IMG/VR virus record: IMGVR_UViG_3300017747_002313
DNA: 20,000 nt
Strand: one strand, 5' to 3'
Source of the DNA: an uncultured virus (IMG/VR IMGVR_UViG_3300017747_002313)
Taxonomy: Duplodnaviria; Heunggongvirae; Uroviricota; Caudoviricetes; Crassvirales
Below the pieces are notes generated by a model, which saw only the letters and a program-made list of their open reading frames with translations, made no database searches and had not been told where the DNA came from. This document shows, one piece after another, positions 7,674-18,990 of the stretch (position 1 is its first letter; every line of letters begins with the position of its first letter). Made by a program: the position numbers and the translations under genes.

Positions 7674-8764
7674 TAGAAGTAAGTTATCATTATACAATAT
7701 CCATTACCACCATTACCACCTGCACCTGAGTTAGCTCCATTGGTAGAAGCGCCTCCGCCGCCGCCGCCACAACAAACAGCTCCATTACCTCCTCTTCCGC
7801 CTGCAATAGTTCCTGCTGTATCTCCTGAAGCTCCACCTGTTCCGCCAATTGACATAAGAACAAAATTAGCATTTGTTGTTGTAAATGTTCCATTAGTTCC
7901 TGCCGCACCTGCTGCTGAACCTCCTAAGTTTAAGTATATGTTATTGAAAGTCATATCTCTATTCTGCAATGATTGACCTGCGTTTCTTACGTTTGCTGCA
8001 TCAATTCCACCTCCAAATGTCCCGCCCGTAAGTGGTCTCATATTAAATAAAGCATTACCTGTAAATCCATTTGAATTAGAAGTTCCTGTACCATATTGTC
8101 CCGAGGCATAAATTCCATAAATAGCTTGACCTGGTACTGTGTTACCACCATTTGCTGTAGCAGTTCCACCTGCACCACCTGTGCCACCTGCGCATATAAT
8201 TTTAGCAGTTCCTTGCGTTCCATTTCCACCTATCAAACAAATTCCACCGCTTTGTCCTGCTGAGCCATTTGTATTATCAACTGTTACTGTTGCTGCACCT
8301 GTTCCACCTGAACCAATCCATATGTTTTCAGTAGCAGCAAATACCGATGCATCAAGTTTATTAATAAAAACAGTTCCTGTTCCTGCTCCACCTCCACCAT
8401 AACGAGCTGATGCCGCAGCGCCTCTACGACCTGAACCACCGCCACCACCTGCTCCAAATAAATATACTTCTACTTGCATTGCATTAGCAGGTTTTGTCCA
8501 AACACCATTTGATGTAAATACTTGAATGTTTATTGGAGTACTTGAACCACCACCTGAATACTGCGGAATATTCAAAGTAGAGCCTACTAAAGTAGCCGCT
8601 CCGCTTGTCCCCGTTGTTGTTAAAGTGAGCGTGTTTTGTTTAGTATTAAGACCTGTATCTAAATAGTCTTTCACAGCTTTCTGAGACGGAACTACAATAT
8701 CACTATTAAGTGATAGGGTAGGATCTGTATCTATAGGGGTTCCTTTTGTAAATCCTTGGCTCAT
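7673..8764 (-). CDS. Glycine-rich tail fibre / receptor-binding protein
   Basis: [30 protein letters not shown]...GGGGGG...[14 protein letters not shown] glycine-rich domain; N-terminal [10 protein letters not shown] anchor motif. Confidence 0.8.
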   Translation of the reverse strand: [363 protein letters not shown]

Positions 8765-8765
8765 A

Positions 8766-10019
8766 TTATCTGCTTATTTCTTCCCAGTCCATTGATGCAA
8801 GAACATTACCACCGCCACCACCAACATCAGAAGCAACCACAATAGTAAGTTCAAATGGAGTTGATGTTAATGCATTTCTTTCAAGCTGTGTTTTAAAAAG
8901 TGCTTCTTTAAGAATATCAACTTGAGTTGATCCTTGGTTTGTTGCACTAAAGAAACCACTTGCTAATATCCTTCCTCCTGTAAGTGAAGTTCCTGTTATA
9001 TTATAATCTACAGAAGAACCACCAGGAGCAGCAACCCAAGTACCTCCTGAAGTGGTTCCTGATGCTATAACTTGCCAGTTATAATGACCTGAAGTAGTTG
9101 CTATTACAGAAATTGCAGTACATATTATTATAGCATCTAAACGATTAGGTGATGTTTTAAGTCGTATACTTACTATAGGGTAAAATGTTCCTGCTACTGC
9201 TAAGTTTCTTGGAGTTGTTACAGGTATTCCAATAGCTTGTTGCAATCCGTTAAGTTGATATCCTCCTTCAGATAAAACCGTAGAGCATATCTGCTTTAAT
9301 GTACTTGCCCCACTTGTAGCTCCTGTATTTGTTATCTCATACCTTAGTGGTAATGATGCCGTTGTAATGTATGTACTAGTAATAATGTTAGCGTGATGAA
9401 ACTTATGGCATACATAGAAGTTTCCGTTTACAATAAATCCTATCCTAACCGTACCTACGCCTAACCACTCCAAGTCCATAAATAGGATCTGTGCCTTTGT
9501 TAAGTCAAGTGTAACACCACTAGGACCTGTCCCATCCATCTTGTCTACATTCCAACTTGCCTGTGCAACTGGAGTGTTTACTACTGCTCCTGATACAGAA
9601 CTTCTCTCAACAAAACTTACAGTACTATTGTTAAGTTCTAAATAGTATCCGTTATTTGATCCATAGTAACCAACTCTCTGTCTGAGGTTAGTCTTAGCGG
9701 CACTCATTACAAATGTTGAAAGTACAAGCAAGCTTTTACCAGGCTGATAAGAAAATACCTTGGTAGTCTCTCTTATAACCTGAGAGCCTGATGCAGCCGT
9801 TACAGCAAGATCAACAAGCCCTTGATCAGAATTAAATGTAGCAGTACCACTTGTAGCAGTAGCTGTAGACCAAAGTTCGTTATCATCAAACCTATGGCTA
9901 GAGTCAAACAAGGTAAATGGTTCACTGACTCTTAGCCTACCAAATGAATCTATGTTAGGAGTATTTGCAAATGAAATCTCACTGCTAATAATATTATATG
10001 AAGCGTATCCCTGTGCCAT
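8766..10019 (-). CDS. Virion structural / tail protein
   Basis: 417 aa, T/S/G-rich; DSFGRLRVSEPFTLFDS, YQPGKS and DLEWLGVGTVRIGF motifs. Confidence 0.7.
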   Translation of the reverse strand: MAQGYASYNIISSEISFANTPNIDSFGRLRVSEPFTLFDSSHRFDDNELWSTATATSGTATFNSDQGLVDLAVTAASGSQVIRETTKVFSYQPGKSLLVLSTFVMSAAKTNLRQRVGYYGSNNGYYLELNNSTVSFVERSSVSGAVVNTPVAQASWNVDKMDGTGPSGVTLDLTKAQILFMDLEWLGVGTVRIGFIVNGNFYVCHKFHHANIITSTYITTASLPLRYEITNTGATSGASTLKQICSTVLSEGGYQLNGLQQAIGIPVTTPRNLAVAGTFYPIVSIRLKTSPNRLDAIIICTAISVIATTSGHYNWQVIASGTTSGGTWVAAPGGSSVDYNITGTSLTGGRILASGFFSATNQGSTQVDILKEALFKTQLERNALTSTPFELTIVVASDVGGGGGNVLASMDWEEISR

Positions 10020-10020
10020 A

Positions 10021-10350
10021 TTAACTTATTTCAGATCCATAAAGTGAGAATGACAAATTGGTATTTGAGGCATATACTTTTACTTTATCTGTTGCTGCCA
10101 AAGTTACTCCAATTGTAGCAATAAAAGTATCATTAGCACCAATAGGTAAATCATAGTAAATATAATCCTTATTAGCAGTAGCACCACCGCCAACAGCTAT
10201 TGATATCCTAAATGTAGATAGAACTGCTGATCTGTTACATACTATAACAGAACTAGCTACAGCTGATGTAGCTGCGGGGACTGTGTACAGAGCTGTCTCT
10301 GTTGTTGCTGAAGGACTTACCTGTCCTAGTGTTTTGTATACTGTTGGCAT
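10021..10350 (-). CDS. Putative tail-associated structural protein
   Basis: YKTLGQVSPSATTETALYTVPA...SVIVCN...LSFSLYGSEIS, beta-rich, in the tail cluster. Confidence 0.7.
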   Translation of the reverse strand: MPTVYKTLGQVSPSATTETALYTVPAATSAVASSVIVCNRSAVLSTFRISIAVGGGATANKDYIYYDLPIGANDTFIATIGVTLAATDKVKVYASNTNLSFSLYGSEIS

Positions 10351-10351
10351 A

Positions 10352-10555
10352 TTATCCTCCCATTAATAAAAAATTCATTTCAAATCCAACAGAACTTGTT
10401 GGTGATGGAGGAACAGACCATGTGCCGTCTCCTCTTAGATATGTAGTACTGTCAGCAGTCCCACTACCTAGGTTAAATGTAGGTACCTTGTCCTCCTTAG
10501 AGAACGGTATTATCTTGCCTAGGACCCTCTTTAATGGACGTGGAAATATACTCAT
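10352..10555 (-). CDS. Small tail-fibre-motif protein
   Basis: Contains GTADSTTYLRGDGTW, a repeat unit seen in phage fibres; ends FLLMGG. Confidence 0.6.
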   Translation of the reverse strand: MSIFPRPLKRVLGKIIPFSKEDKVPTFNLGSGTADSTTYLRGDGTWSVPPSPTSSVGFEMNFLLMGG

Positions 10556-10560
10556 GCTAG

Positions 10561-10592
10561 TTGCAAAGGTAGCAAATTTAATCTAAATTTGC
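10561..10592. promoter_or_regulatory. Overlapping divergent promoters around a 9-bp palindrome
   Basis: Minus TACCTTTG (10564-10571); plus TTG (10561-10563), 20 nt, TAAATTTG (10584-10591); GCAAATTTA-atc-TAAATTTGC (10572-10592). Confidence 0.65.
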
Positions 10593-10598
10593 CTACAT

Positions 10599-11186
10599 AT
10601 GAGAACAAGCAAGGATAAGAAAAAAGATAAGTACGTTATAAAAATTAGACCTAGACCACTCCAGAAAGTAATCGTTAGAGAATACCCAGCACATAACTAC
10701 ATGAAGTACTGGCGTGTGATCAGGTACTGGGCATGTCGTTACTATAAAGTGACAATGATAGAGCTTGAGATACTTTTCTTCCTGCACGACGAGATGCTGT
10801 TCAACCAGACTACGTTCAACTCATACGACAACATCTTCAGGTGGGACACATACAGGATGGCTAGACTAAAAGAAAAAGGGCTCATCAGAACATTCCGTGA
10901 ACCCACTAAGAACCAATCTAGATTGTACGAGCTCAGCTTCAAAGCCAAGAAGATGATAAACTCTATCTATAAGAAGCTAAACGGCGAAGAACCAATCCCT
11001 GTAAAACCAAGTAGAAACCCTATGTTTAATAAGAAAGCAGGATTCACAGACAAGGTCTTCGCCATAGCCGTTAAAAATTTTAACGAGGAGTTTAAAGAAT
11101 CAAGGCAACGTCTCGATACTGAATTATACGGTACGTCTGATCTCCACTCCGATAGTCATGACCCTGAACAGCATCATACGCTATAA
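10599..11186 (+). CDS. Winged-helix (MarR-like) DNA-binding protein, putative regulator
   Basis: VTMIELEILFFL...MARLKEKGLIRTFR...RLYELSFKAKKMI fits a MarR-type wHTH; has its own promoter. Confidence 0.6.
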   Translation: MRTSKDKKKDKYVIKIRPRPLQKVIVREYPAHNYMKYWRVIRYWACRYYKVTMIELEILFFLHDEMLFNQTTFNSYDNIFRWDTYRMARLKEKGLIRTFREPTKNQSRLYELSFKAKKMINSIYKKLNGEEPIPVKPSRNPMFNKKAGFTDKVFAIAVKNFNEEFKESRQRLDTELYGTSDLHSDSHDPEQHHTL

Positions 11187-11355
11187 CGTCACCCTTCTTA
11201 ATGTGCTCGTCAACTAATGAGCTGACCTCAACTACATCAGCCTCCTGATATCTCTGCTTCACAGTCTCTGAGCCAGTTAACAACAACCCACTCGCAGTCT
11301 GCTTCTGCTCTATCTCCCTAGGCTTAACTACAATAAAACTATTTAACGCTTTCAT
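11092..11355 (-). CDS. groES: Co-chaperonin GroES (Cpn10), phage-encoded
   Basis: MKALNSFIVVKP...KQTASGLLL (mobile loop)...IKKGDVIAY...YRIIQYRDVALIL. Confidence 0.9.
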   Translation of the reverse strand: MKALNSFIVVKPREIEQKQTASGLLLTGSETVKQRYQEADVVEVSSLVDEHIKKGDVIAYDAVQGHDYRSGDQTYRIIQYRDVALIL

Positions 11356-12937
11356 TCTCTCTTACATTTGTGATTATCGCATTCGTACTAAGGATCGTAG
11401 TAGCAACAGATACAGCGTTCTTAAGTGCGTTCTTCGTCACCTTCGCTGGATCTATAATACCCATCTTCACCATATCGCCTGTCTTCTTCTCCTTCACATT
11501 ATACCCAACACCTACACTACCATCGTCAAAGAACTTCTCGTAGTCAAGAACCTCGTTGCCATCAACACCTGCGTTCTCACAGATCTTATGGAACGGCTGC
11601 TCACATGCCTGTGACATAATATCCAACGCAACAGACGGAGCTCCATTCAACATCGCCTTAGATGCTACAAACGCAACTGCGTTCACTAGCCCTACGCCTC
11701 CACCTGGCAGTACACCATCCTCAATCGCTGCCTTCACCGCAAGCACTGCATCGTCAACACGGTCCCTCAACTCCTTCTGCTCGATATCTGAACTCGCTCC
11801 GACGTAGATCATTCCTACACCTCCTGAGATTGACGCAATACGCTCGTCCATGAACTTGATCTCTTCCTCAGAAGTAATCTCCCACTTACTAAGCTTAAGC
11901 TCCTTCACATACGCCTCTAGATCTTCATCAGTGCCGTCAGGTCTTACGATAACAGTGCTGTCCTGACCTACGATGATCTTCTTCGCTCGACCCAATCCTG
12001 AAACTGTACACAACGCTAAGTTGTCACCAGTAGACTCTGAGTAGTAGTGAGCACCAAGAGATCGTGATATATCAGTCATCATCTCGTCCTTACGATACCC
12101 GAAGTTTGGTGGAATAATGTTACACACCTTGATTTTGCCCTGAACAACGTTCATGTTAAGTGTAGCTGCAACCTGAGCTGACAACTGACCTACAATAAGC
12201 AATGGCTTTCCTTCCTTCAGCACATGAGCCAGTACGTTCTCGATGTTCGATAGATTATTAATCTCATGATCTGTAAGTAACACATACGCATCCTCCATCA
12301 CGCACTCCATCTTCTTGTGATCGTTCACGTAGTACTTAGATGTCCACCCTCTAGCTACACGTATACCCTTAATAACCTCAGAGTATGTCTTCGTTGTCTT
12401 AGAGTTCTCTACAATAACATGACTAACCTGCGAGTACACATCAGCGATCAACTTACCTACAACTGGATCGTTGTTTGCAGAGATCGTCGCTACATCAAGC
12501 AGCCTCTTACCACTCACCTTCTTAGACATACGCCCAAGCTCCTTCACTACATCGTCTGCAATAGACTGTATCTGTCTCAATACCTCAGTCTTGCTGTGCT
12601 TCTCTACATCAAAGTAGTCCTCGAACGCATCGATAATAGCCTTGGTAAGCACAATACTAGTCGTAGTGCCATCACCTGCCGACGACGCTGTCTTCGATGC
12701 TGCCTCCCTTACCAGCTGAACAGCTAAGTTCTCCACTGGATCGTACAAATTGATTGATCGTGCGACGGTCACACCGTCCTTCGTAACGGTAACACCTCCT
12801 ATGTGGTGCTCGGACTCTATTAAGACCGTCTGCCCTGATGGGCCTAAAGTGGATGAAACTGCTGCTGATATCTTGTCGATGCCGTTTTTCAGTTTCTTAC
12901 GTCCATTTTCATCTAAAAATATCTGTTTTACTACCAT
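11339..12937 (-). CDS. groEL: Chaperonin GroEL (Cpn60), phage-encoded
   Basis: TLGPSG, VTKDGVTVA, AGDGTTTS, DVATISANND, GVLPGGGV, GIIDPAKVTKNAL; 532 aa with no GGM tail. Confidence 0.96.
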   Translation of the reverse strand: MVVKQIFLDENGRKKLKNGIDKISAAVSSTLGPSGQTVLIESEHHIGGVTVTKDGVTVARSINLYDPVENLAVQLVREAASKTASSAGDGTTTSIVLTKAIIDAFEDYFDVEKHSKTEVLRQIQSIADDVVKELGRMSKKVSGKRLLDVATISANNDPVVGKLIADVYSQVSHVIVENSKTTKTYSEVIKGIRVARGWTSKYYVNDHKKMECVMEDAYVLLTDHEINNLSNIENVLAHVLKEGKPLLIVGQLSAQVAATLNMNVVQGKIKVCNIIPPNFGYRKDEMMTDISRSLGAHYYSESTGDNLALCTVSGLGRAKKIIVGQDSTVIVRPDGTDEDLEAYVKELKLSKWEITSEEEIKFMDERIASISGGVGMIYVGASSDIEQKELRDRVDDAVLAVKAAIEDGVLPGGGVGLVNAVAFVASKAMLNGAPSVALDIMSQACEQPFHKICENAGVDGNEVLDYEKFFDDGSVGVGYNVKEKKTGDMVKMGIIDPAKVTKNALKNAVSVATTILSTNAIITNVRENESVK

Positions 12938-14751: not shown

Positions 14752-14839
14752 TGTTCATCATTATATACCTCTTACCATCGGTAAGCCAACGCAGCACATA
14801 GTTCGTCTGACGCCTCTTAGACCTCTGAATGTACGAAAA

Positions 14840-15160
14840 TGTTGACTTGTGTCGAGAAATGTCGGTCCAGTGTCGAGAAAATGTCGACTCAAAAACACGT
14901 AAGTTATTGATCCTGTGCATATTATCCATTTTTAGTGTCGAGATGTCGACTTTACTGCAAAAAAAATATTTTTTTTATTTTTTCCTACTACTACTACTAT
15001 ATATATACTAATTTTTTTTTATTTATAATTGGTAAAAAAGTCAACATCTTAACACTAAAAACACTAAAACCCTTACTACGACTGGGCTGTAGGAGTTTTG
15101 CATGTAACATCAACTCAGCACAAACCGACACTAAATCGGGCTTTTCAACAAATTCTAACA
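14840..15160. repeat. Dyad-symmetric phased-hexamer element, copy A (origin- or pac-like)
   Basis: TGTYGR hexamers at 14840, 14850, 14860, 14871, 14882, 14936, 14944; AT-rich core; reverse hexamers at 15041, 15049, 15115, 15125, 15145, 15155. Confidence 0.8.
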
Positions 15161-15334
15161 TCTTTTTTCGGGGGTCGCATATTCGGGGGTAGTGGGTAAT
15201 ATACCCATTTCACGTGACCACCCATCAAACGAAAACCGATCAAAATCGAGGTGGGGGGTATGCATTTTGGATAAATGCATTGAACTTTTTAGCTTTTTGT
15301 TGAGGGGGTGCATGTGGGTAGGTAGGTAGCACTC

Positions 15335-15421
15335 TACGCGCGCGCGCACATGTGTATGTATATAGATGGCTGTGGCTGTAGGTATATAGATAGACCTACC
15401 AACATACATACATACATATGT
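15335..15421. repeat. Alternating purine-pyrimidine tracts
   Basis: TACGCGCGCGCGCACATGTGTATGTATATA (15335-15364) and ACATACATACATACATATGT (15402-15421). Confidence 0.8.
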
Positions 15422-15742
15422 TGCGGCACATCATTCGATCAACCATTCTATTTAACATAATGTAAATTATAGGACAAGCATACCTAACACCATGCAAGAC
15501 GATCAATAGATCAACCAATCGGCATGCAGTCCGTTCGTTCGGTGATCATAGGCGCATATCATTAGACGTTGAATAACATCCCTAACCAACCAAACTATTG
15601 AAAATCTAGCAAAATCCGACGTAATATCCGCGTAACTATCTGAAGATCAGTAGATAGATATGTATAAAAGCAAATTGTAACGTGTATTTTTATTTAGAAT
15701 GAGTATAAATAAGCTATAAAATGAAAAATAGTTATGCGAAAG

Positions 15743-15774
15743 TTTGCATAATCCAATCAACTGCCGTACATTTG
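15743..15774 (+). promoter_or_regulatory. Consensus Bacteroidota promoter driving the early region
   Basis: TTTG (15743-15746), 20 nt, TACATTTG (15767-15774). Confidence 0.8.
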
Positions 15775-15779
15775 TTTCA

Positions 15780-16094
15780 ACAAGATGAGGGAACGACCTC
15801 AGATAAAGCTTAAGAGTAATTAAAAGGGGGTGACAAAGCCAACCACTGAACAAAGCTTAACAACACACATACGATCTTTGAAATAACGAAATCAGCAACA
15901 GTTTACTTCTTATCTAATAGAGCGCAAGTGATCGAACGGTAACAGAGGGATGAGTTGATTAGGACAATGGGCACAGCACCTAGTCGGGGTGTTGAGAATG
16001 CTGAAATAATAGACGGATCGCGGACAGTTGTCGCGGCGATCACACACGGTGCAGTCAGAATGACTGATTAATGGTAGCGATAACCACTGCACCA
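15780..16094 (+). ncRNA. Structured ~310-nt leader RNA with a boxA-like site and a terminal tRNA-like mini-domain
   Basis: No credible plus-strand ORF; hairpins TGAGG/CCTCA, CAGCACC/GGTGTTG, GTGATCG/CGATCAC, GGTGCAGT/ACTGCACC; GATCTTTGAAA at 15873-15883. Confidence 0.5.
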
Positions 16095-16117
16095 CTAACC
16101 AAATAAAAACAAACACC

Positions 16118-16240
16118 ATGAGAACAGTAGAAAGATTAATTGAAGTAGCTTTCATTAGCTTATTTGTAGCGGCATTTATTTTTGTCGCAGTTATGGCCTG
16201 CACAGGGCATGTATATGCGAGCCATACGGGATTAGGATAG
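16118..16240 (+). CDS. Small single-TM early protein (40 aa)
   Basis: MRTVERLIEVAFISLFVAAFIFVAVMACTGHVYASHTGLG, after leader TAACCAAATAAAAACAAACACC. Confidence 0.65.
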   Translation: MRTVERLIEVAFISLFVAAFIFVAVMACTGHVYASHTGLG

Positions 16241-16262
16241 TAGATTAATAAACCAAATTACC

Positions 16263-16448
16263 ATGAAAAGATATAGAATTGAACAGACGTTTGCACCAAG
16301 TGATGAATTAGATTACGTAGGTCAAAAAAGATACGTTATAGTTGATAATTTAGATAACTGCATTTTCAGTTGTGAACACATTAGCTATAGAGAAGCAAGT
16401 AGAGAATTAAAGGATTTAAACGAAGACAACCTAAAATTCGAACAGTAA
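16263..16448 (+). CDS. Small early hypothetical protein (61 aa)
   Basis: ORF track; leader AAACCAAATTACC. Confidence 0.7.
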   Translation: MKRYRIEQTFAPSDELDYVGQKRYVIVDNLDNCIFSCEHISYREASRELKDLNEDNLKFEQ

Positions 16449-16471
16449 AGTAATCATATAAAACAATTACC

Positions 16472-16627
16472 ATGAAATTCAATTTAATAATTCTAAGCAA
16501 AATCAATAGCGATTATTACAGTATGCAGGCTTTAGATAGAGAAGGTAACATTGTATATAAAGCTACAATACCAAGTGTAGATGCATGTAAGGTAATAATG
16601 AAATATAAGAACGTCAAGATTGTATAA
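16472..16627 (+). CDS. Small early hypothetical protein (51 aa)
   Basis: MKFNLIILSKINSDYYSMQALDREG...; leader TAAAACAATTACC. Confidence 0.65.
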   Translation: MKFNLIILSKINSDYYSMQALDREGNIVYKATIPSVDACKVIMKYKNVKIV

Positions 16628-16668
16628 TTCTTGACTGGCTAAAATTTAAACCAAATAAACCAAACACC

Positions 16669-16773
16669 ATGAGCAAGATCATTAAAATAGAGGGAGCATA
16701 TGAGATCATAGGCTTTTTCGTAGAGGGACAATTGATTAGAACAACTAAAAGAAGAGTAACTAATTGGAAATAA
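16669..16773 (+). CDS. Small early hypothetical protein (34 aa)
   Basis: MSKIIKIEGAYEIIGFFVEGQLIRTTKRRVTNWK; leader AAACCAAATAAACCAAACACC. Confidence 0.65.
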   Translation: MSKIIKIEGAYEIIGFFVEGQLIRTTKRRVTNWK

Positions 16774-16798
16774 TATTAACATTTAAAAACTAGAAATC

Positions 16799-16963
16799 AT
16801 GAAAATCGAAAAAATAATTCAAGAGTATAAGTTTATTAAGTTAGTTAAAACAGAAATGATAATGGGGGGAAATTATGCCGTAATTAATGGCGATAGAGCA
16901 AAAACAGGTCTAACATTAGATGCGGCTTATGATCTATTTAAATTATTAAAAAAACTAGGTTAA
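16799..16963 (+). CDS. Small early hypothetical protein (54 aa)
   Basis: MKIEKIIQEYKFIKLVKTEMIMGGNYAVING...LLKKLG; its stop codon lies in ribozyme stem I. Confidence 0.65.
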   Translation: MKIEKIIQEYKFIKLVKTEMIMGGNYAVINGDRAKTGLTLDAAYDLFKLLKKLG

Positions 16964-17036
16964 CTGACGAGTCTTAGATAGACGAAAGCAATTAAATGAA
17001 CGGATGTTCAGCCATGCGAATGGTTTGCTATTAACC
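16958..17036 (+). ncRNA. Hammerhead ribozyme (type I) with branched stem III
   Basis: Stem I GGTTAA/TTAACC, core CTGACGA, stem II GTCT/AGAC, GAAA, stem III AGCAA/TTGCT, NUH triplet CUA; predicted cut after 17030. Confidence 0.88.
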
Positions 17037-17052
17037 AAATAAAACAATTACC

Positions 17053-17223
17053 ATGAATAAATTAATCGGATTACTTATGGCTAATGGTATTAGCTATAAG
17101 AAGTTACCAAATAACCAATTCCAGGTAACAAGAGACGTTGTAAGTTATGATCTTAGAAATGATTTACACAAAATAGGATTTAACATCCATTTGTTAGACG
17201 TTACTGCAATTATTCACAAGTAA
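17053..17223 (+). CDS. Small early hypothetical protein (56 aa)
   Basis: MNKLIGLLMANGISYKKLPNNQFQV...; leader TTAACCAAATAAAACAATTACC. Confidence 0.65.
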   Translation: MNKLIGLLMANGISYKKLPNNQFQVTRDVVSYDLRNDLHKIGFNIHLLDVTAIIHK

Positions 17224-17234
17224 AACCAATCACC

Positions 17235-17348
17235 ATGCAAGCAAACGAATTTCACGATCTCAATGATCGCATGACTATTTTACGCATGAAAGCATTGCGT
17301 ATCACATTGGCAGACGGAATGTGTACATATCTGTTAGCATTTAATTAA
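17235..17348 (+). CDS. Small early hypothetical protein (37 aa)
   Basis: MQANEFHDLNDRMTILRMKALRITLADGMCTYLLAFN; leader AAAACCAATCACC. Confidence 0.6.
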   Translation: MQANEFHDLNDRMTILRMKALRITLADGMCTYLLAFN

Positions 17349-17371
17349 TAACCAAATAAAAAATAGAAACC

Positions 17372-17584
17372 ATGAGAAAGAATTTTAATTTAAACGACGA
17401 AGAATTCATCATCTGTATGAGTTACATTCTTCAACAAAAGAATAACTACATCTCTGAGTTAGAGATAGCATTAAAAAACAACAGCAATGAATGCTTGACT
17501 GAATACTATCAGAGAGAGATAGACAAAATCAACGATTTCGAAGATAGGTTATCATTGAAATTCAACATTAAAATTAACCAGTAA
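17372..17584 (+). CDS. Small early hypothetical protein (70 aa)
   Basis: ORF track; leader TAACCAAATAAAAAATAGAAACC. Confidence 0.7.
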   Translation: MRKNFNLNDEEFIICMSYILQQKNNYISELEIALKNNSNECLTEYYQREIDKINDFEDRLSLKFNIKINQ

Positions 17585-17595
17585 AACAAATCACC

Positions 17596-17760
17596 ATGCA
17601 AGAAATAATTAATCAAGCAATCAACGATATGTTTGTCGGGGTTGCGCAGGATAATGGATTGTCAACGGGGGACATCAGTCCCCTTGATGATATGATCATT
17701 GATGATATAAAGGAACAGTTGCAAGAGGTATTGCAACGATTTGTAGAACAAAACAGATAG
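17596..17760 (+). CDS. Small acidic early protein (54 aa)
   Basis: MQEIINQAINDMFVGVAQDNGLSTGDISPLDDMIIDDIKEQLQEVLQRFVEQNR; leader AAAACAAATCACC. Confidence 0.7.
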   Translation: MQEIINQAINDMFVGVAQDNGLSTGDISPLDDMIIDDIKEQLQEVLQRFVEQNR

Positions 17761-17762
17761 CC

Positions 17763-17981
17763 ATGTACGGAAGAGTAACAGATCAGAAGCTTAAAAGCTA
17801 CGGAAAGATAGTAGAGTATTGGCCTAACAAGTTGAATAGGTACATGCGTCACGTTAGATTCCAAGGCAGCGAGAAGACGTACACCATGAGCAAGGACGCG
17901 ATCCAGGATTTAAATGACTTGGAGATGATCGAGCAATGGGAGTCTATAGATAGACAGATGTTAAACCAAATAAACAAGTAA
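17763..17981 (+). CDS. Small early hypothetical protein (72 aa)
   Basis: ORF track; starts 2 nt after the previous stop. Confidence 0.65.
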   Translation: MYGRVTDQKLKSYGKIVEYWPNKLNRYMRHVRFQGSEKTYTMSKDAIQDLNDLEMIEQWESIDRQMLNQINK

Positions 17982-17983
17982 CC

Positions 17984-18097
17984 ATGAAAGCAAAAACATT
18001 TTTACCCTTGTTCACAGGGTTCTACGGATCAATATGGGATGACGTAGATTTTTACGGAGAGGACGAAATCAGCCAGTATAGTATTAACGAAAATTAG
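17984..18097 (+). CDS. 37-aa ORF, possibly a truncated gene
   Basis: MKAKTFLPLFTGFYGSIWDDVDFYGEDEISQYSINEN; leader AAACCAAATAAACAAGTAACC. Confidence 0.55.
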   Translation: MKAKTFLPLFTGFYGSIWDDVDFYGEDEISQYSINEN

Positions 18098-18102
18098 GAG
18101 TC

Positions 18103-18180
18103 ATGGAAGTAGTTATCTTTGTAGTAGAATGCTGGTTGATCGGAGTAATCGATGTGCTAATTGAGGAAGAACGTAAGTGA
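18103..18180 (+). CDS. Possible 25-aa hydrophobic peptide
   Basis: MEVVIFVVECWLIGVIDVLIEEERK exactly fills the gap between two ORFs. Confidence 0.35.
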   Translation: MEVVIFVVECWLIGVIDVLIEEERK

Positions 18181-18181
18181 T

Positions 18182-18379
18182 ATGTGGCAAGCAGTCGTCA
18201 GACCTGTTGGCATTCCAGAGGAGTGGGTGATAGGTGTGCTGTATGGGGAGACGCATGAGGAGAGGTACAGCGAGATCGTAGCGTACATGTTAGAGATGGG
18301 TATCCAAGAATTCGAGGTGATGCACTATGCACCATTGAGGTGCACAGCTGTAGCGATTGAGGATATCTTCCTGAATTAG
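18182..18379 (+). CDS. Small hypothetical protein (65 aa)
   Basis: From ATG 18182: MWQAVVRPVGIPEEWVIG...EDIFLN; ends immediately before repeat element B. Confidence 0.6.
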   Translation: MWQAVVRPVGIPEEWVIGVLYGETHEERYSEIVAYMLEMGIQEFEVMHYAPLRCTAVAIEDIFLN

Positions 18380-18694
18380 TGTCAAGATTTGTTAAAATCT
18401 GTTAAATCGTGCTGACAAATGTTGTGTTGATGTTGCCCGCAAAACTATGTCTAGCCCTTTGTTTATCTAGCTTTCAGCTTTCTTAGTGTTAAGATGTTAC
18501 TCTTTACTCTAATTAATTAGAAAAAAAAATAATAGAGTATATATAAAGGGATATGGGGCGTGGAGATAAAAAAAATAAAAAAAATCTGCGTCATGTCAGC
18601 ACATCAGCACTAAAATAGGTTAGTCTATTGGTAGTCAGTCAGTTACGCATTTTTGTGTCAGCACTGAGTCAACATTTTGCAACATTTGTTGACA
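18380..18694. repeat. Dyad-symmetric phased-hexamer element, copy B (inverted relative to copy A)
   Basis: Hexamers at 18380, 18390, 18400, 18410, 18420, 18431, 18487, 18495; AT-rich core; reverse hexamers at 18596, 18604, 18658, 18669, 18679, 18689. Confidence 0.8.
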
Positions 18695-18698
18695 GAGA

Positions 18699-18730
18699 TT
18701 TGCAAAGTTTATAAGAATTGCATAGATTTG
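18699..18730 (+). promoter_or_regulatory. Consensus Bacteroidota promoter
   Basis: TTTG (18699-18702), 20 nt, TAGATTTG (18723-18730). Confidence 0.8.
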
Positions 18731-18864: not shown

Positions 18865-18949
18865 GGTCAGGTGTCTTAATATGGTAATGGTTACGAGAAG
18901 CCATCTGTTAAAGATGGGGACAAAGCAGGTTCGAATCCTGTCCTGACTA
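18865..18949 (+). tRNA. Atypical tRNA / tRNA-like RNA (anticodon ambiguous: UUA by geometry, Asn GUU-like by sequence)
   Basis: Acceptor GGTCAGG/CCTGACT; D-stem TCTT/GAGA with a 17-nt loop; anticodon stem CCATC/GATGG with loop TGTTAAA; T-arm GCAGG-TTCGAAT-CCTGT; no encoded CCA. Confidence 0.7.
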
Positions 18950-18990
18950 CAAAACATGTTCATGGTAGACATGTTTTATTTGGTTTCATG

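Follow-up and report, generated by a model that had tools for sequence, protein, structure and literature searches.

The final 20 kb of IMG/VR record IMGVR_UViG_3300017747_002313 (20,000 nucleotides, hereafter the window) carry two ∼300-bp elements, A and B, which are probably old copies, each maintained separately, of a replication origin of the Staphylococcus aureus pathogenicity island (SaPI) type, read by the phage's own primase-helicase. The source is an uncultured lake phage, a Bacteroidota podovirus with a 65.4-kb genome (65,576 nt in the record, the circle being closed by a 123-nt overlap; labeled G000 among its relatives), whose virion proteins (terminase, portal, and capsid), GroEL and GroES resemble those of Bacteroidota podoviruses. 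Twin origins, paired packaging signals and inversion sites had all been offered for the two elements in a preliminary description of this stretch, and it is the first option that gained support, from inward-facing phased iterons, an A/T-rich core, sites resembling those of integration host factor (IHF), conservation among relatives, the domains of the enzyme, and co-variation between enzyme and element. Each copy would thus, with good likelihood, be a putative loading site and origin for the superfamily 3 (SF3) primase-helicase. This would provide uncultured GroEL-bearing podoviruses of Bacteroidota, a widespread group, with a testable candidate origin, and primase-helicases of the BT4734 type with a first candidate for their DNA target.

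All four sequence blocks that A and B had been reported to share were present at the positions described, and A is collinear with the reverse complement of B. Their local alignment (14840–15160 vs. 18380–18694) scored 180.5. This value was reached by none of 1000 dinucleotide shuffles, which averaged 42.9 and peaked at 85.5, nor by any of 1000 shuffles confined to 10-nt blocks, the best of which scored 118. The best other 320-nt window overlapping neither element reached 69.5 in the same test, and A aligned to B in direct orientation scored 45.5. Global identity between A and the reverse complement of B is just ∼62%, in agreement with the earlier view that spacing and short words are preserved while the sequence has diverged. 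Each element can also be aligned to itself in reverse complement, with scores of 101.5 for A and 76 for B, an internal symmetry that the preliminary description missed. In three close relatives A is 98–99% and B 95–97% identical to the copies in the window; the corresponding identities are 78–93% for neighboring non-coding sequence, 93–95% for a nearby motif at the strand switch (the T motif, see below), and 94–97% for three genes. No RNA gene was recognized at the elements by Rfam (0 matches to an E-value of 1) or ARAGORN (0). As judged from sequence, the A/B pair is a real feature that appears to be under selection, and the selection on a protein-DNA architecture proposed earlier is borne out by the inward phased iterons, the IHF-like sites, and the conservation in relatives.

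Both elements are near-palindromes, i.e., ∼300-bp regions with at least two opposed iterons on either side of an AT-rich center (Table 1). The left-arm 8-mers of A face right and its right-arm 8-mers (the pair at 15040–15055 and four others) face left; B repeats this plan on the opposite strand. Across 45 complete elements from this genome and its relatives, iteron-class words point inward 331 times and outward 48 times, and iteron spacings in 46 elements peak at 8, 10–11, 20–21, 31–32, 42, and 53–54 bp, which is helical phasing. The exact IHF consensus WATCAANNNNTTR, as given in the accessible text of PMC11724364, occurs 22 times, in 19 of the 45 elements, whereas 100 local shuffles gave 2.3 occurrences on average and never more than 7. 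A scan for the architecture by regular expressions alone recovered both copies in this genome and missed or under-ranked several relatives. In the mechanism we propose, the C-terminal domains of the enzyme would bind the iterons, one hexamer per arm, a host protein of IHF or HU type might bend the arms, and the core would melt so that two forks start. Given the near-symmetry of each element, it should be functional in either orientation.

Table 1. Features of the window, by position.
Feature	Position	Strand	Remarks
GroEL gene	11339..12937	-	Anchor for retrieving relatives
Element A (copy 1)	14839..15161	+	SaPI-type origin-like; on the side of the strand switch where the late genes lie
A, outer left iteron array	14839..14888	+	Five 8-mers RTGTYGRN at 14839, 14849, 14859, 14870, 14881; spacing 10–11 bp
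A, IHF-like site	14900..14912	-	Differs from WATCAANNNNTTR at one position; separates the outer iterons from the inner ones
A, inner left iterons	14935..14950	+	Tandem pair
A, A/T-rich core	14951..15039	.	86% A+T; T tracts and TATATATA; putative unwinding element
A, right arm	15040..15161	-	Inverted iterons: inner pair 15040, 15048; then 15103, 15114, 15124, 15154
T motif	15180..15314	+	135-bp single-copy switch motif with G6-T run; candidate terminus/packaging signal, separate from A
Putative Bacteroidota-type promoter	15743..15774	+	Before the early gene array
Variable cassette	16100..18379	+	Small early genes with repeated leader; gene content differs among close relatives
Element B (copy 2)	18379..18694	-	Opposite orientation to A
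B, arm matching A right arm	18379..18501	+	Iterons 18379, 18409, 18424, 18430; inner pair 18486, 18494
B, A/T-rich core	18500..18590	.	75% A+T across span
B, arm matching A left arm	18587..18685	-	Iterons 18587, 18595, 18603, 18657, 18668, 18678
B, degenerate IHF-like site	18633-18645		Two mismatches; within the 18587..18685 arm
Putative Bacteroidota-type promoter	18699..18730	+	Just past B

The genome encodes both a primase and an SF3 helicase-initiator in one 795-aa protein (genome positions 8605–10992, beyond the window), which we examined through a near-identical copy, P0001. Its primase domain is of BT4734 type (PF08800, E = 3.5e-19; the PriCT match is weak), and SF3-type Walker A, Walker B, and motif C are recognizable; DUF5906 was detected in 22 of 23 aligned homologs, P0001 itself being the exception noted. 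The last 106 residues (690–795) lie nearest to PF03288 Pox_D5 clusters (model-feature score 0.96), a lead rather than an alignment. A profile of this tail matched 346 representatives, and 14 of the 16 longer ones scanned carry primase or DUF5906 domains. Among 50,697 records no cultured phage has the full enzyme, the sole full-length match being metagenomic. The genome gave no match to DNA polymerase A (PF00476; other polymerase families were not searched), and the primase domain may double as a polymerase, or a host enzyme may be used. PMC5862659 mentions the BT4734-like family a single time and offers the speculation that origins are recognized by the C-terminal winged helices of such primases. 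Our literature search, which most subscription journals and supplements lay outside, found nothing on origins of the present phage group or of the BT4734-type enzyme.

The preliminary description had pointed to related phages as the place to look for paired elements, and two copies were found in 19 of 30 records, consisting of this genome, 28 contigs of 43–89 kb, and part of MW202828.1 (the remainder of which had no element match). G018 was used without its last 153 nt, and G029, near-identical to L002, was left out. The 298-position census profile, rebuilt on the element core after an iterated profile drifted into the GroEL start, gave 0 matches on reversed sequence. The pair is inverted in eight records (G000, G001, G002, G003, G004, G006, G013, and G017) and direct in 11 (G014, G016, G018, G019, G023, G024, G025, G026, G027, G028, and W01). 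A single copy is visible in the other 11, lying to the left of the switch in two records (G005 and G020, the latter with E = 0.66) and to its right in G008–G012, G015, G021, and G022, with the G007 copy truncated where the contig stops. Matches are weak for some copies (G013, E = 0.017 and 0.002; first copies of G019 and G026, E = 0.044 and 0.003), and the G023 pair and the second G014 copy were located by eye and with a lineage profile. Self-searches of the single-copy records tested found no second copy (G007 and G021 partial).

Five records (G001, G002, G004, G005, and G006) entered through a 16-mer pattern search and are biased toward the inverted clade; among the 24 chosen by GroEL alone, three have inverted pairs, 11 direct pairs, and 10 single copies. 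In a quickly built tree of the primase-helicase with 27 rows (omitting G006, G007, and G021, and with G014 still scored as single), the inverted state changes three times and the direct state four times. Given these repeated changes and the mixed split among GroEL-selected records, orientation and copy number are labile, and the single-copy relatives suggest that one copy is enough. The family would then be one in which an origin has been copied, moved, flipped, or lost while still matched to its enzyme. An apparent long end repeat in G002 proved to be a 74–89% overlap of two variants rather than a terminal repeat. The contig ends of G002 and G022 overlap at 65–89% identity across kilobases, which suggests chimeric joins of two variants.

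Two lines of evidence tie the elements to the enzyme. First, the center of copy 2 lies at most ∼120 bp from the primase-helicase start in nine of the 19 two-copy records, often overlapping the start, and in eight it is preceded by a gene that ends, as judged by eye, in the kind of acidic PF tail that single-strand binding proteins typically have. Second, the words TGTACA/TGAACA number seven in each G023 copy and five and one in the second and first G014 copies, compared with 0–2 in the other 45 elements, and the tails of these two enzymes are the most diverged (mean identity 0.28–0.29 vs. 0.36–0.45; the ATPase core, at 0.59, is within range). This lineage may constitute a natural iteron/tail swap usable for studying specificity. 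More generally, word spectra are shared to a greater extent within genomes (0.41) than between them (0.17; P = 5e-5, 19 genomes), and the effect persists in two 8-genome sets of one supported clade (P = 4e-4 and 1.5e-4).

Abutment on the enzyme gene would also suit a regulatory operator, at which the iterons bind the primase-helicase or a phage DnaA-type helix-turn-helix protein so as to switch transcription, without initiation at one or both copies. In G001, copy 2 abuts a gene with a sub-threshold match to the DnaA helix-turn-helix family PF08299, and in this genome a putative promoter follows B. We nevertheless consider an operator very unlikely, as an 85–100-bp A/T core flanked by two arms is unnecessary for repression, the −7 box of the promoter beyond B is absent from the same place in five of the seven other inverted-pair genomes, and Gundel and phi46:3, which have annotated DnaA-like proteins, gave no element match.

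Several observations count against an origin read by the primase-helicase. Both copies in this genome lie ∼10–14 kb upstream of the enzyme gene, whereas the SaPI ori is directly downstream of rep, and their own IHF-like sites carry one and two mismatches. The co-variation of iterons and tail is seen in a single lineage, with two genomes; the tails of G025 and G026 are near-identical, yet their favored words differ; and the sharing of words within genomes could stem from re-duplication or gene conversion. The winged-helix fold suggested for the tail derives from a language-model feature score on a protein fragment; searches of PDB sequences with the protein and with an alignment profile gave no match, and a profile comparison with the P4 alpha protein was not significant, with only Walker A aligned (probability 0.3). 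The cultured phages elemoF, Panino, phi46:3, and Gundel, which have homologous terminase, portal, and capsid proteins but another helicase and lack the full enzyme, gave no profile match better than E = 0.96, but this blank is a weak control, given that G023, a member of the family, also went undetected by that profile. Finally, the minimum of GC skew, a check proposed in the preliminary description, tracks the strand switch even where the sole element is 2–5 kb away, and skew was for this reason discarded as origin evidence.

The T motif adjoins A on its right, ∼20 bp away. Its profile, built from 16 records, found it in 26 of the 30 records, on the identical strand in 26/26 and once per genome save for the variant overlap in G002, and gave 0 matches in reversed genomes. 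In all 17 two-copy records with a detectable T motif, the motif lies between the two copies. Among cultured relatives, the profile matched elemoF (E = 3.6e-5), phi46:3 (E = 0.01), and Panino (E = 0.19 and 2), with no match in Gundel. In elemoF the motif sits at the strand switch, and the terminase is 42% identical to the one here, but no iteron element match was seen. In Gundel (terminase 32% identical) the predicted terminal repeat falls where the strands switch divergently, ahead of the early small genes; this 322-bp repeat is a PhageTerm prediction described as unverified in the accessible text of PMC8776804. The T motif rather than the iteron pair thus seems the better terminus candidate, the virion ends probably lie near it, and the copies would bracket these probable ends, perhaps with one near each end of the virion DNA. 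In this way the putative origin is told apart from another conserved motif, the probable marker of the genome ends. The Gundel repeat also contains a C6 run ∼55 nt inside its left end, in the opposite sense relative to the early genes, which we do not count as support. By eye, the strand switch of phi46:3 (L239 21850–22060) has different short opposed repeats adjoining an A/T-rich stretch.

That A and B themselves are paired packaging or terminus signals read by the terminase, the second option raised earlier, is highly improbable. The proximity of A to the T motif speaks for it, as does the distribution of contig ends within 10 kb, found at 62 of 86 GroEL-bearing loci on the switch side and 28 of 86 on the other, but a variable early cassette would likewise break assemblies, and the pile-up near the switch is indistinguishable from such breaks. 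The distance from element to switch ranges from <0.2 to >11 kb, copy number is one or two (with one copy in 11/30 records, on either side of the switch), and it is a different motif that marks the switch, including in elemoF. Just after the T motif, at 15335–15420, there is an alternating purine-pyrimidine tract, which extends over several hundred bases in G002 and other relatives (L026 6170–6750) and is a frequent contig break point.

The position of the copies around the probable ends may leave room for a division of labor between them. We think it unlikely, though worth stating, that the family sets one helicase-loaded origin at each virion end, with the copies dividing labor or acting together. 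In the first version one copy would fire on incoming DNA, and the end-proximal copy would serve end duplication or concatemer replication; in the second, the pair would work only after end joining brings the copies within a few kb. Such a scheme would mean that, in a lytic podovirus without a recognized separate DNA polymerase, genome circularization is coupled to initiation by a self-loading primase-helicase of satellite type.

A related arrangement is the bipartite origin of phage P4, in which the alpha protein binds ori and crr, with looping of the DNA. The P4 record (NC_001609) has two iteron-bearing regions within a few kb, crr and ori ∼4.5 kb apart, with type-1 repeats in both orientations at each; here A and B are 3.5 kb apart, both are conserved, and two iteron regions in cis occur in 19/30 records. 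If the copies formed such an origin, the enzyme would bind both, both would be needed in the clade, and only one would fire, and termini between them (where the T motif lies in 17/17 records) would let the halves meet only after the genome ends join. This is nonetheless quite unlikely. A single copy is present in 11/30 records, on either side of the T motif and with no second by self-search where tested, and A and B each have the full two-armed layout, whereas crr of P4, a cis requirement according to the annotation, consists of a tandem 120-bp repeat and does not resemble ori. The match to alpha, moreover, was not significant.

The preliminary description had the pair bracketing the entire early-gene array; the repeated-leader genes (11 ACCATG starts) do lie between A and B, but small plus-strand genes run ∼9 kb past B, up to the replication genes. 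Two sequences matching the Bacteroidota-type consensus TTTG-N-TAnnTTTG, which we take to be promoters, are listed in Table 1. A leader is repeated before each early gene across 16095–17995, and in contigs of four runs sequences skip from leader to leader, which suggests that genes enter and leave the cassette through recombination at these leaders.

It was also proposed that A and B are recombination sites inverting this cassette, and their inverted arrangement, here and in seven other records, is what such sites would require. We regard this as extremely improbable. The pair is direct in 11 of the 19 two-copy records, A and B are too dissimilar (∼62%) to resemble the near-identical inverted sites of such a system, and the T motif inside the cassette is never reversed (26/26). 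No inverted cassette was seen. No A–B joint occurred among the joints listed from contigs of the four runs, although contigs drop rare forms. The lack of a recombinase previously reported for the window extends to the whole genome, where the tyrosine (PF00589) and serine (PF00239) recombinase/integrase families were unmatched.

Phage T7 has primary and end-proximal origins, driven by promoters. More than one origin per genome is also indicated for the lytic phage ICP1, whose read profiles point to a probable second origin late in infection (PMC7145576), but in the text available those origins are not described as duplicated helicase-iteron modules. The closest likeness is to the ori and PriRep5 of SaPIs and other phage-inducible chromosomal islands (PICIs) of Staphylococcus aureus, where, in the text available, an origin of ∼300 bp, its AT-rich center flanked by opposed iterons, is read by the C-terminal winged helix of Rep (PMC9371898), and where the enzyme, a primase joined to an SF3 helicase and ending in a small DNA-binding domain, is described as self-loading, binding the origin via that winged helix (PMC9371898; bioRxiv 10.64898/2026.10.17.759575). 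In contrast to these integrating, helper-dependent satellites, the present genome is that of a complete 65-kb virion-encoding podovirus with terminase, portal, and capsid and no integrase match, a BT4734-type primase, degenerate 8-mers, and IHF-like sites; and whereas the SaPI ori is a single copy immediately downstream of rep, here there are two copies, located either upstream of the enzyme gene or at a great distance from it. In view of these differences in position and number, we regard the element by analogy as SaPI-ori-like in its presumed working and not as a member of the SaPI module; what would be new is the two-copy layout, the origin type itself being known. The nearest cultured phages, i.e., Elemovirus, Pachyviridae (Gundel, phi46:3), and the Maribacter phage Panino, share terminase (32–42% identity), portal (27–48%), and capsid (22–52%) with this genome, and differ in lacking the full SF3 primase-helicase and any element match.

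Elsewhere in the window, a tRNA-like stretch with a T-loop motif lies at 18880–18955, in a region of very high contig depth; ARAGORN and Rfam made no call there and its folding was not better than that of shuffles, and it is probably a degenerate tRNA. Two GroES-like genes accompany the GroEL gene, at 1389–1955 (188 aa, just upstream of the terminase region) and 11092–11355. A single plus-strand gene of 195 aa (10599–11186) occurs within the late region and is found at the same position beside GroES in many relatives; its counterpart in MW202828.1 is annotated as a repressor.

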